Shown: one piece after another, positions 27,887 through 31,408 of the stretch
Layout: each line of letters opens with the position of its first letter
Position numbering within the stretch: position 1 is the first letter of the stretch
Virus record (IMG/VR): IMGVR_UViG_3300045988_155334
Length of the DNA: 64,000 nt
DNA from: a virus
Taxonomy: Duplodnaviria > Heunggongvirae > Uroviricota > Caudoviricetes
Reading direction: 5' to 3' (one strand)
Position numbers and translations under genes: made by a program
The notes under the pieces: model-generated
The model's database searches: none
Seen by the model: the letters and a program-made list of their open reading frames with translations, nothing else
Told to the model about the DNA's origin: nothing

Positions 27887-27903
27887 TAAATATTGTTTTT
27901 TAT
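27887..27903 (+). promoter_or_regulatory. C1 operator overlapping the promoter of uhr-hrdC-dmt
   Basis: ATTGCTCTAATAAATAT, 16/17 match; -35 TTGCTC and -10-like TATGTC. Confidence 0.6.
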
Positions 27904-27964
27904 GTCGTGTTTTCGGTACCATTCAGCCATCGCCCTTCAATGGGCATTTGTTTGGAGTCGTCAG

Positions 27965-28249
27965 ATGCAGATGGAGCTAATAAGCCGCAAGGAGTTCGAT
28001 AGCCGTGTAACCAGCGGTGAACTCGACAACTTGCAGGCTATCAAGGTGAAAGAAGGCTTTTGCCTCATTGGGAATCAGAGCGGAACAAATCGCGTTTTTA
28101 TGCTTCGCCGTACGGATTTGAAGCCATTTGTCTGGAAGAACGAAATTGGTCCCAGCTCATACGCTCAAACGAGGGGGTGCCACAACCTGGCCTTTTTCTA
28201 CAAAGACGAGCTTTCTGTGGTTGATATTCAAGGGTTACAACATGTTTAA
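27965..28249 (+). CDS. Small protein upstream of hrdC (Uhr-like)
   Basis: ORF 27893-28249; likely start ATG 27965 after a GGAG ribosome-binding site; stop overlaps the hrdC start. Confidence 0.4.
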
Positions 28250-29147
28250 GCACTGGAAAAACATTACTATTTATAAACTTTCTCGTGAGGCGGATCTGAC
28301 CGACTTAGAAGATAAAAAGAAAATGATCCTTTTCACGCCATGCGGTAGTCAGGATATGGCCAAGTTCGGTTTTGTATCGCCATTTGGTGATAATTCCGAA
28401 GTTATCGCTATGCATGGAAATGGTTTTATCCTTGTTGAAGCAAAGCGCGAAACAAAAATTCTTCCCCCGCCGGTTATCCAGCGAGCTATTCAAGAAAAAA
28501 TTGAAAAACTTGAGCAAGAACAAGCGCGTAAACTGAAGAAAACAGAGAAGGACTCCCTGAAAGACGAAGTTCTGCATTCTCTTCTGCCACGGGCTTTTTC
28601 AAAGTTTTCTGTTATCCAGGCGATCTACGACGGTTCAACTAAACGTATCTATATCAATGCCAGCGCGCGGCAGGCTGAGGATATGCTCGCGCTTATGCGT
28701 AAGTCTCTGGGTTCTCTTCCTGTTGTTCCCCTGAGTGTTGAAAATCCCATTGAATTAACGCTGACCGACTGGGTACGTGATGGTAGTGCTCCACAGGGAT
28801 TTCAAATGGGGGATGCGGCAGAACTTAAGGCAGTGCTTGAGGATGGCGGTATTGCCCGAGTGAAAAAGCAGGATTTGGGAAGCGATGAAATTTCCACACA
28901 CCTGGAAGCTGGCAAGCTCGTCACTAAGTTGGCACTCGACTGGCAGAACCGCATTAAATTTACACTGGACCATAACTTCAGCCTTACCAGCGTCAAATTT
29001 GCGGATGAATTGCTTGAGCAGAACTCTGATATTGATAGTGAAGATGTTGCGCAGCGACTGGACGCAGATTTCTTCCTGTTGACCAGTGAAATTTCGTGCC
29101 TGGTTGATGCTCTGGTAAATGCCCTTGGTGGAGAGGCTAAGCAGTGA
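28242..29147 (+). CDS. hrdC: HrdC, RdgC-like recombination-associated DNA-binding protein
   Basis: ORF 28128-29147; likely start ATG 28242 (301 aa); [16 protein letters not shown] and [45 protein letters not shown] resemble RdgC. Confidence 0.75.
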
Positions 29148-31408
29148 AAGAGCTGTGCTATGGATCTGTTTGCAGTGGAATTGAAGCCGCGAGTATTGCC
29201 TGGGAACCGTTGGGTATGCGTCCGGCGTGGTTTGCTGAAATCGAGTCTTTTCCATCTGCCGTTCTTGCGCACCGCTGGCCCCATGTCGCGAACCTTGGCG
29301 ACATGACAAAACTCGCCCAAAAAGTCCAGACCGGAGAAATTGAAGCCCCTGATGTGCTCGTCGGGGGTACGCCTTGTCAGGCATTCAGTATCGCGGGCTT
29401 ACGTGGTGGGCTTGATGATGAACGCGGCGCGCTAACTTTGAAGTATGTGGAGCTTGCAAATGCAATTGACGACAAACGGTCTGAGTCCTTCCTCAAACCG
29501 ACAGTTATCGTCTGGGAAAATGTCCCAGGAGTCCTGTCATCAGCAGACAACGCGTTCGGATGTTTCCTTGCCGGATTGGCTGGAGAAGATGCGCCATTCG
29601 AACCTGGTGATCGACCTGAATCACGAAAAAGTAACACGTTCTGGCGGTGGGATGTCAAAACCGGTTGCCATACTCCAAAGTGGCCGCAGTGTGGTTGTAT
29701 TTATGGACCGCAGCGAAAGGTGGCCTGGAGAATCCTTGATGCCCAATACTTCGGAGTGGCACAACGACGCCGACGCGTGTTTGTTGTCGCAAGTGCTCGA
29801 ACAGACCTCGATCCCGCAACGGTACTTTTTGAGTTCGAAGGCGTGCGCCGGAATATTGCGCCGAGCCGAAAAAAGAAGGAAATCGCTTCCGCCATTACTG
29901 CAAATGGCGCTGCAATCAGTGGCGAAAGCCTAAATCCATGCCTACACGCTGGCATGTCCCCCGATATGAAATCGACGAAAGCCGTAAACGGTTTCAGGAT
30001 GGCGGCATTTGGGGAATATATTGACGATGAAACCGCATCGACAGTAAAGGCAAGAGACTTTAAAGATGCCACTGACCTTGCCGTTTTTAGCAGCACTGGA
30101 GCAGGTTTTTGGTCAGAAGGGCATGGTACATTGCGGGCGCGTGAGCAAGAAAGCCATGAGCATCTTGTTACATTGGCTTTTCCTGAGCGTATGAGTGGTA
30201 CACAACATGCAGCAACTAAGAATACTTCACCATCTCTAATGGCTCAAAATCCAACTGCTGTTTGCTATGAAGTAAGAAACGAAGAAGTAGCTGTCCGCCG
30301 TCTTACCCCTGTCGAATGTGAGAGACTTCAAGGTTTTCCTGATGGACATACGTTGATCCCTACGGAAAAGCGTAAAAAAGTTAATTCAGATGAACTGGCA
30401 TATCTGCGCAATCACTATCCAGATTTAAGCGAAGAAGAGGCCGCGATGCTTGCAGCTGACGGACCGCGTTACAAAGCGATCGGCAATAGTATGGCGATAC
30501 CAGTAATGCGCTGGATTGGCGAGCGGATTACCAAGGCTGCATGTCGGCAGAATGAAGGGCGTGAAACAAAAGAGCGAAAAGTTAAACCAGCGGCAGAATT
30601 CGAACGGTCCATATTCAAATGGGCTGGTGGAAAATTTGGTGTTCTGGAACAAATCTTTCGCTATTTGCCAGAAGGGAAGCGCCTGATCGAACCTTTTGTC
30701 GGTGGCGGAGCTGTCTTCACGAATGCCGGATACCAGGAAAATCTGCTAAATGATGTGAATGCTGACCTGATTAACTTTTACAAGACTCTGCAACGCGAGG
30801 CGCATTCACTTATCACACTGGCGCGTCGGTTTTTCCAGGACTACAACACACAGGAAGGATACCTGGCAGTACGGAATGCGTTTAACAAACAAGTCTATGA
30901 TGATTTACATCGCGCAGCGGCGTTTTTGTTCCTGAACCGACATTGTTTTAACGGATTGACGCGTTACAACCAGGCCGGTGAGTTCAATGTCGGTTATGGG
31001 AAGTATAAAACTCCGTATTTCCCATTACAGGAGATGGAAGCCTTCCTCGGTGCGGAAGGGTGTTCTGAGTTTGTATGTGGTGATTTTGCTGCGGTGATTG
31101 AAGCTGCCGGAGAAGGAGATGTCATCTTCTGTGATCCGCCGTATGAACCGCTTCCAAATACAGAGGGATTCACGAACTATTCCGGTCATGACTTTAAGTT
31201 TGAAGAGCAAAAACGCCTGGTGTCTCTGTTGACGGATGCTCATCGCCGAGGTGCAAAGGTTCTCATTACTAACAGTGGCGCGCCAAACATCAGAGAGCTT
31301 TATCATGACAATGGCTTCAGAGTGGAGCCTCTTTTTGCCAGACGTTCTGTGTCTTGTAAGGGGGACACTCGAGGTGTTGCTCATGACGTTTTAGGTATAT
31401 TGCTCTAA
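29144..31408 (+). CDS. dmt: Dmt bifunctional DNA methyltransferase (N-terminal C5-cytosine, C-terminal Dam-family N6-adenine)
   Basis: 754 aa; [35 protein letters not shown] in the N-terminal half; KWAGGK and FCDPPY in the C-terminal half; GTG start overlaps the hrdC stop. Confidence 0.9.

Follow-up and report, generated by a model that had tools for sequence, protein, structure and literature searches.

The region at 27877-31408 of the 64-kb window (the whole stretch of DNA that was analyzed) is best explained, with a probability of roughly 0.9, as the early, C1-repressed Pdmt operon, uhr-hrdC-dmt, of a P1-like plasmid-prophage. The window as a whole is such a P1-like element, and the locus is a known, already annotated early operon of bacteriophage P1, real but ordinary. 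Its sequence shares 97.9% identity with P1 across 3651 nt; overall, no record is closer than the E. coli plasmid pMB4926_2 (99.8% identity). GenBank entry AF234172 (P1; also NC_005856) annotates the operator Odmt (formerly Op68), the promoter Pdmt, uhr, hrdC and a "bifunctional" dmt. Operon, operator and dual-domain methyltransferase alike have been part of the P1 genome annotation since 2004, and both C1 control and Dam activity are already in the literature, so that the finding as first written matters little.

P1 and the window agree in gene order, gene overlaps, operator, promoter and protein lengths. At the protein level, Uhr is 100% identical to its P1 counterpart, HrdC agrees at 300 of 301 positions and Dmt at 729 of 754. 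Nucleotide differences are concentrated in dmt, which has 66 (2.9%), vs 0.4% for uhr and hrdC. The original prediction had listed a C1 operator, two gene overlaps, a 754-aa Dmt and its motifs, and all of these were recovered at the positions given there. The left-hand boundary given there, 27887, falls inside the operator, and the unit begins at 27877. The features of the locus are as follows.

27877-27893, + strand: monovalent C1 operator Odmt (formerly Op68), ATTGCTCTAATAAATAT, one mismatch to the consensus; protein_bind feature in AF234172
27893-27922, + strand: sigma-70 promoter Pdmt, with -35 box TTGTTT (27893-27898), 18-nt spacer and -10 box TACCAT (27917-27922); transferred from AF234172
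27965-28249, + strand: uhr, 94-aa protein, ATG start
28242-29147, + strand: hrdC, 301-aa RdgC-family protein, ATG start overlapping the uhr stop by 8 nt
29144-31408, + strand: dmt, 754-aa fused C5-cytosine/N6-adenine (Dam-type) methyltransferase, GTG start overlapping the hrdC stop by 4 nt
29144-30583, + strand: C5-cytosine methyltransferase half of Dmt (aa 1-480), from motifs and Pfam PF00145
29372-29380, + strand: PCQ catalytic codons, uninterrupted, with an empty intein site between 29374 and 29375
29783-30295, + strand: variable (target-recognition) region of Dmt (aa 214-384), the 171-aa 'P1 type', between motifs VIII and IX
30602-31396, + strand: Dam-type N6-adenine methyltransferase half of Dmt (aa 487-751), with KWAGGK and DPPY
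31399-31426, no single strand: divalent C1 operator Oban (formerly Op72a/b) with the ban promoters; AF234172

Dmt and its two methyltransferase halves

Dmt had been proposed to carry C5-cytosine and Dam-family motifs in one chain, and this is borne out: all motifs were located and both Pfam domains matched. In the N-terminal half, CSGIEA (motif I, aa 10-15), GTPCQ (IV, with PCQ at 77), ENV (VI, 125), QRRRR (VIII, 207), motif IX (at 385, in the LQGFP form) and GNS (X, 447) follow one another in the order characteristic of C5-cytosine methyltransferases, and motifs VIII and IX are separated by a variable region. The Pfam C-5 DNA_methylase profile (PF00145) matches at 2e-36. The same motif variants dominate among the best 150 of 4420 cluster representatives in a large subfamily (E<1e-30), and thousands of stand-alone C5 enzymes share 50-70% identity with the C5 core of Dmt.

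The C-terminal half belongs to the D12 class, with KWAGGK at aa 492, DPPY at aa 664 and a match to Pfam MethyltransfD12 (PF02086) at 6.2e-56 over aa 493-725. It matches E. coli Dam structures at about 1e-57 to 8e-57 and T4 Dam at 8e-10. In the alignment, Dmt keeps most positions that correspond to the DNA-contact loop of E. coli Dam; the equivalents of R124, N120, L122 and Y138, residues of E. coli Dam assigned to GATC contacts, are present, but F takes the place of Y119 and G that of P134. The P1 record and reviews state that Dmt methylates GATC. In Dam- hosts, P1 depends on this methylation for packaging and for the production of progeny; pac methylation and efficient progeny require either Dmt or host Dam (PMC12707154; PMC11437467). 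The Dam half would methylate GATC so as to provide a methylated pac site and support other GATC-dependent P1 functions, even in low-Dam hosts.

Natural variation falls almost entirely on the other half of the protein. Within a survey of 80 P1-like loci, dmt alleles differ nearly exclusively in the C5 target-recognition region and in the presence of an intein, and 22 of the 25 amino acid differences between the window and P1 Dmt lie in aa 1-480. Across P1-like elements, the region between motifs VIII and IX measures 89, 171, 224 or 279 aa, and these four forms share segments as a mosaic. The intein (1023 bp, 341 aa) sits at the catalytic PCQ cysteine, between P77 and C78, in RCS47 and in 20 of the 80 surveyed loci; the RCS47 type combines a Hint domain with a LAGLIDADG homing endonuclease. 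It is absent from dmt in the window. Literature searches for an intein in P1-like Dmt, and for Dmt in phage-plasmid papers, returned nothing relevant.

Most likely, the C5 half adds methyl groups to cytosines, with its variable region determining the target site; this would protect progeny DNA from restriction, and the diversification of target recognition in the population plausibly fits such an anti-restriction role. Alternatively, Dmt may work only as a Dam enzyme, with a silent or vestigial C5 half, in which case the operon would be an aid to packaging and replication and not a DNA-protection unit. We consider this rather unlikely. It agrees with the P1 record, where C5 methylation by Dmt is annotated only as 'perhaps', and with the literature consulted on Dmt, which describes adenine methylation alone and in which we found no published 5-methylcytosine formation by Dmt at a defined site. 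The non-essentiality of dmt (see below) points the same way, as does W74, a substitution three residues before the catalytic PC that is found in laboratory P1 alone (1 of 80 sequences). The allele in the window, with G74, instead has all catalytic motifs in their subfamily-typical form, and its core still resembles the stand-alone enzymes to the degree given above. That the intein has been kept is no proof of C5 function: splicing would have to be preserved in any case, since the Dam half follows in the same polypeptide. Four in-frame mosaic forms of the variable region between conserved catalytic blocks are expected for selection on specificity, not for decay. Just 2 of the 80 alleles are truncated early, at 58 and 61 aa.

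Uhr, HrdC and the architecture of the operon

HrdC is a full-length member of the RdgC family, as had been claimed from its likeness to RdgC. It matches Pfam RdgC (PF04381) at 5.6e-98 over profile positions 3-298 of 298 and the E. coli RdgC structure 2OWL at 2.9e-113. Along its full length it is about 60% identical to the chromosomal RdgC proteins of Enterobacterales, including that of E. coli, from which it differs in length by no more than 2 aa. E. coli RdgC is a ring-shaped dimeric DNA-binding protein that limits RecA. The 60% identity to host RdgC suggests a modulation of RecA by HrdC as well; most likely, HrdC forms a ring dimer on duplex DNA and holds RecA activity down while the phage replicates lytically. 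It would represent a recently captured host RdgC. Unlike E. coli RdgC, HrdC is encoded by a phage, stands under repressor control and follows the lineage-specific uhr gene.

Uhr, an α/β protein restricted to its lineage, matches no Pfam family. A uhr-like gene always lies directly upstream of rdgC, even where Uhr identity drops to 20%, and Uhr may be an obligate small partner. RefSeq and PHROG 2213 label Uhr as a MazG-like NTP pyrophosphohydrolase; neither profile nor fold similarity to that group was found, and the label is unsupported.

The three genes lie on the same strand and overlap at both junctions, as in a single operon. The proposed overlaps of 8 nt (ATGTTTAA, uhr/hrdC) and 4 nt (GTGA, hrdC/dmt) were both confirmed, and Uhr, HrdC and Dmt would be translated from one mRNA via these overlapping stop and start codons. 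A consensus scan gave no + strand promoter match inside the unit. Terminator-like sites in the region show no excess (6 found vs 5.3 expected from shuffled sequence), and an Rfam search of 27000-33500 returned only two downstream tRNAs, with no known RNA element within the operon. Hardly any variation is seen among the 80 P1-like loci in Uhr, HrdC, the Dam domain or the operator. Further afield, the order of uhr-like gene, rdgC and methyltransferase is preserved down to 57% HrdC identity. In more distant relatives, rdgC is followed by one or two additional genes before the methyltransferase, and the tight coupling of hrdC and dmt is therefore not universal. In a CRISPRi screen, uhr, hrdC and dmt all scored as non-essential (PMC10695390), so that no phenotype in a Dam+ laboratory host has been demonstrated for any of the three.

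This arrangement could also be read as a module for the control of recombination and replication, with Uhr and HrdC as its core and the methyltransferase as a separate neighbor that shares the transcript. The constant pairing of the uhr-like gene with rdgC fits that reading, and so does the near-invariance of Uhr and HrdC (0 and 1 aa differences from P1, vs 25 in Dmt). In distant relatives, moreover, the methyltransferase N-terminal domain is replaceable, and the genes that intervene after rdgC are unrelated ones, among them a DpdA-like queuine tRNA-ribosyltransferase homologue. These inserted genes are themselves DNA-modification genes, however, which points to a shared DNA-modification theme, and in all the relatives examined the methyltransferase is still found downstream, on that same strand. 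The GTGA overlap, with neither promoter nor terminator between hrdC and dmt, is shared by the window and all 80 close relatives. Taken together, a separate methyltransferase appears unlikely, and we prefer to treat uhr, hrdC and dmt as one unit.

Operator, promoter and C1 control

The near-consensus C1 operator that had been proposed in front of the operon is indeed there. It is identical at 16 of 17 positions to the 17-bp asymmetric C1 consensus ATTGCTCTAATAAATTT. With up to three mismatches allowed (<=3), the window contains 10 C1-operator matches vs 0.37 expected from shuffles, and none of 100 shuffled windows reached 10. The Odmt sequence is identical in the window, P1 and P7. Most of the 80 P1-like loci carry it unchanged, always 365 nt upstream of the hrdC ATG. 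A C1-type operator is likewise found approximately 80 nt upstream of the uhr-like gene in relatives with 62-73% HrdC identity (L087 and L088). The P1 record cross-references Op68 to GenBank M25413; a literature search for 'Op68' found only unrelated papers.

Odmt adjoins the annotated -35 box of Pdmt, and the window does not differ from P1 anywhere from the operator through to the uhr start. Pdmt is a weak promoter by its match to the sigma-70 consensus (7 of 12 positions). Because a generic consensus scan missed it and found no + strand promoter, Pdmt rests on annotation transfer. In P7, a late promoter, 'LPdam2', is predicted; the sequence read for it was 3820-3865 of the P7 locus (L002). 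Downstream, the unit is bounded by Oban, which overlaps the final dmt codons and stop and consists of a perfect operator at 31399-31415 (+) and an operator with two mismatches at 31410-31426 (-).

Repressor control of the operon, as originally put forward, is supported by the identity of operator and promoter to P1 Op68/Pdmt, by the conserved operator position in relatives and by expression data. After thermal inactivation of c1.100, dmt is induced together with other C1-controlled genes, as measured by rt-qPCR (PMC4713147). An hfq mutant shows weaker induction of both hrdC and dmt (bioRxiv 10.64898/2025.12.28.696737). In the lysogen, C1 would occupy the single operator Odmt/Op68 beside the -35 box of the weak promoter; inactivation of C1, or infection, would then give one transcript covering uhr, hrdC and dmt. 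That the three open reading frames are not co-transcribed from this promoter, with overlaps and operator present by coincidence, is highly improbable: the weak promoter and the empty scan would allow it, but operator sequence and spacing are invariant in the population and retained in divergent relatives, both gene junctions overlap, the P1 record maps Op68 and Pdmt, and dmt responds to C1 inactivation.

Proposed role and comparison with known systems

The unit had been interpreted as a DNA-protection unit. A role in DNA methylation stands, as methylation of GATC at the pac site is the sole demonstrated function; the protection reading goes beyond the evidence, and for the C5 half it is a plausible idea. 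A broader reading, which we put forward tentatively, is that the N-terminal half of Dmt is an active, fast-evolving specificity cassette, expressed alongside a Uhr-HrdC pair that keeps RecA off replicating phage DNA. Target-recognition modules, one to several, and a homing intein may be shuffled into an otherwise unchanging C5 core to which an invariant Dam domain is fused. If so, each allele, including the 171-aa form, would protect progeny DNA against different restriction systems. Uhr and HrdC, for their part, could possibly shield phage DNA from P1's own RecA-dependent Ref nuclease. The population survey offers a practical handle on this, since the methylomes of a few alleles could assign specificities directly. 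A comparison of alleles could also show whether G74W explains the absence of reported cytosine methylation for laboratory P1.

Among P1-like elements, P7 Dam (672 aa) and RCS47 Dmt (1095 aa) have the operon and the catalytic blocks in common with the window, and their Dam halves are nearly identical to its own. P7 Dam differs in having another target-recognition region, the 89-aa form, which makes it 82 aa shorter, and RCS47 Dmt in the 341-aa intein within PCQ. The D12-class domain with KWAGGK and DPPY is also that of E. coli Dam (2G1P) and of other GATC methyltransferases such as DpnM (2DPM) and T4 Dam (1YFJ). In contrast to E. coli Dam, the Dam domain of Dmt is fused to the C-terminus of a C5 enzyme. 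The multispecific C5 methyltransferases of Bacillus phages (SPR, phi3T and rho11s), the general principle of which is cited in PMC12707154, array several target-recognition domains in one variable region. Dmt resembles them in its conserved core and its modular VIII-IX region of varying length, a likeness of layout. Unlike those arrayed enzymes, the allele in the window is a single 171-aa form.

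Layout of the operon and its annotation in phage P1

Every element of the unit is annotated already in the phage P1 record (AF234172), and the finding is therefore a restatement of existing P1 annotation: real, correctly described and already known. The genes were delimited from the ORF listing and by direct reading of the sequence.

Features of the operon in the window
27877-27893, + strand, C1 operator ATTGCTCTAATAAATAT, with 1 mismatch to the 17-bp consensus
27893-27898 (-35, TTGTTT) and 27917-27922 (-10, TACCAT), + strand, sigma-70 promoter Pdmt (AF234172 annotation)
27965-28249, + strand, uhr, ATG start, 94 aa
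28242-29147, + strand, hrdC, ATG start, 301 aa
29144-31408, + strand, dmt, GTG start, 754 aa

The original prediction of a three-gene unit with 8-nt and 4-nt overlaps behind a near-consensus operator is borne out by the ORF listing and the sequence, in which the uhr/hrdC junction reads ATGTTTAA and the hrdC/dmt junction GTGA; its start, placed at 27887, is corrected to 27877. Through these overlapping junctions, Uhr, HrdC, and Dmt would be co-translated. C1 operator sites with ≤3 mismatches number 10 in the window, where 0.37 would be expected; 100 shuffles never gave as many.

In AF234172, the operator is entered as 'monovalent C1-controlled operator Odmt; corresponds to former Op68' and has its own GenBank entry (M25413). 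The same record describes dmt as a 'bifunctional DNA methyltransferase' acting on N6 adenine in GATC and 'perhaps' C5 cytosine. The operator is 'predicted to control expression of upf64.0, hrdC and dam' in the P7 record, and the dmt entry of the RCS47 record points to PubMed ids 2536753 and 3248723.

At the downstream boundary, the divalent C1 operator Oban (31399-31426; a perfect site on the + strand and a 2-mismatch site on the - strand) and the ban promoters overlap the 3' end of dmt, taking in its final codons and its stop. Between dmt and the ban leader no terminator was convincing; a strong terminator-like hairpin is first met at 31586-31608. Downstream of the leader are tRNA-Asn (GTT) and tRNA-Thr (TGT) and, after them, a tRNA with a CAT anticodon, annotated in P1 as tRNA-Ile2; this arrangement (32081-32234 and 33862-33937) is the P1 layout. 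The divergently oriented upfC (27511-27795, - strand, 94 aa) is annotated with a PAAR motif in RCS47, its homologues show a faint PF05488 match, and it may encode a spike-tip protein.

The two halves of Dmt and their alleles

All C5-cytosine and Dam-family motifs predicted in one 754-aa chain were found (PCQ at aa 77, ENV at 125, a 16-letter motif at 385, KWAGGK at 492, and DPPY at 664), along with QRRRR at 207 and GNS at 447. Dmt matches the Pfam D12 N6-adenine class (6.2e-56, aa 493-725) and the C-5 cytosine methylases (2e-36). The Dam half resembles E. coli Dam (about 1e-57) much more than T4 Dam (about 1e-9). Residues equivalent to E. coli R124, N120, L122, and Y138 are retained in it, whereas Y119 is replaced by F and P134 by G.

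The C5 half falls in a very large subfamily (4420 clusters at E<1e-30), and its motif forms are the norm among the best 150 cluster representatives (CSGIEA in 127, GTPCQ in 141, and ENV in 148). Since only 9 of these 150 representatives also contain DPPY, the C5-Dam fusion is, on sequence comparison, uncommon. The C5 half would be active, with its target set by a variable region, and would shield progeny DNA from restriction. That it is instead silent is the less probable reading, to be given some weight; in the literature searched, Dmt was nowhere reported to methylate cytosine.

Among 80 surveyed P1-like viral contigs, most have an invariant operator 365 nt from the hrdC ATG. Dmt measures 754 aa in 37 loci, 672 in 17, 1013 in 9, 1095 in 9, and 862 in 4, the others being singletons. 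This variation maps to the segment separating motifs VIII and IX and to a 341-aa insertion. The former is 89, 171, 224, or 279 aa long and made of shared segments: the 279-aa form combines the 224-aa form with the core of the 171-aa one, and the 224-aa form in turn includes that of the 89-aa form. The four mosaic forms resemble the way in which multispecific phage methyltransferases stack their target-recognition domains. The window carries the commonest allele, with the 171-aa form (29783-30295, Dmt aa 214-384) and an empty intein site between 29374 and 29375; other forms occur in P7 and in surveyed loci L032 and L050.

The 341-aa insertion (1023 bp) separates P77 from the catalytic C78 of PCQ in 20 of the 80 loci, on three target-recognition backgrounds, and is present in RCS47 too (within 1644-4931). 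Cys is its first residue and HN its last two, the catalytic Cys coming next; it matches Hint and LAGLIDADG profiles and has a GC content of 43%, against 49.5% for the gene. These sequence hallmarks identify it as an intein that carries a homing endonuclease; an intein in Dmt is not mentioned in the literature searched. Within the 80-sequence set, W74 (VWGTPCQ) is confined to laboratory P1, whereas G74 (VGGTPCQ) is found in the window (29363-29365), P7, RCS47, and 78 of the 80 surveyed sequences. W74, beside the catalytic cysteine, may be a lab-strain change.

HrdC, Uhr, and distant relatives

The Pfam RdgC match (5.6e-98) covers the whole of HrdC, which also aligns along its entire length with the solved E. 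coli RdgC (2OWL, 2.9e-113). With the chromosomal RdgC proteins of many Enterobacterales it shares ~60% identity; it looks like a host gene acquired fairly recently. It would behave as RdgC does, attaching to duplex DNA and restraining RecA. In the P1-like phage records ON470617.2 and ON470615.2, hrdC is divided into 'RdgC1/RdgC2' and dmt likewise into two ORFs, frameshifts being the probable cause; PHROGs 13439 and 21369 correspond to such half-length HrdC fragments.

Uhr has no Pfam match. Its label in RefSeq and PHROG 2213, 'nucleoside triphosphate pyrophosphohydrolase', is unsupported by Pfam, homology searches, or a confident structure model. Because Salmonella homologues begin at the second ATG (27971), the true start may lie two codons downstream of the annotated one.

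Relatives with 57-73% HrdC identity retain the order uhr-like gene (94 aa), rdgC, methyltransferase, with one or two additional genes before the methyltransferase. This constant adjacency suggests that Uhr works with HrdC. It is unlikely that the two form a recombination module merely sharing a transcript with a DNA-modification gene. In one distant relative (L085), a DpdA-like gene (7005-7736; phrog_887, queuine tRNA-ribosyltransferase) separates rdgC from a methyltransferase (8323-10023) that fuses a different N-terminal methyltransferase domain (phrog_757) to a D12 domain; DNA-modification genes appear to collect at this locus. A C1-type operator precedes the uhr-like gene by ~80 nt in two of three relatives examined and is missing upstream of that gene in L085. 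There, an inverted repeat, ACACTAAACTTTTTAATTAGTGT, occupies the equivalent position (about 5590-5612) and may serve some other repressor as its operator.

C1 control and comparison with P1

P1 dam was reportedly characterised by Coulby and Sternberg (1988) and placed under Op68 control by Citron, Velleman and Schuster (1989). In the P1 record, the C1 operator adjoins Pdmt, and loss of C1 induces dmt: by rt-qPCR, dmt rises with other C1-controlled genes after thermal inactivation of C1.100 (PMC4713147), which answers the refuting condition of C1-independent transcription set by the original prediction. In an hfq mutant, hrdC and dmt are under-induced together (preprint). It is scarcely credible that uhr, hrdC, and dmt do not form an operon. 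All three are non-essential in a standard host (CRISPRi screen, PMC10695390). According to the P1 record and the literature, the Dam half methylates GATC, as needed for pac function where host Dam is absent; P1 packaging requires GATC methylation at pac, making dmt essential in Dam- hosts (2025 review, PMC12707154), and a like requirement is stated for progeny production (PMC11437467). The proposed 'DNA-protection unit' is partly supported: such a function is plausible for the C5 half, the role demonstrated for the Dam half is not this one, and HrdC might contribute to it.

New material is limited to side observations, namely the modular target-recognition regions, the intein, G74W, and the mislabelled Uhr, with which the old question of whether Dmt acts on cytosine can easily be tested. 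The 3651-nt region shares 97.9% identity with bacteriophage P1 at full coverage and 99.8% with E. coli plasmid pMB4926_2; it is present in 585 plasmid records. Compared with P1, the operator-to-uhr-start stretch is identical, as is Uhr (100%), and substitutions affect 1 residue of HrdC and 25 of Dmt; divergence is 2.9% in dmt, in contrast to 0.4% in uhr and hrdC.
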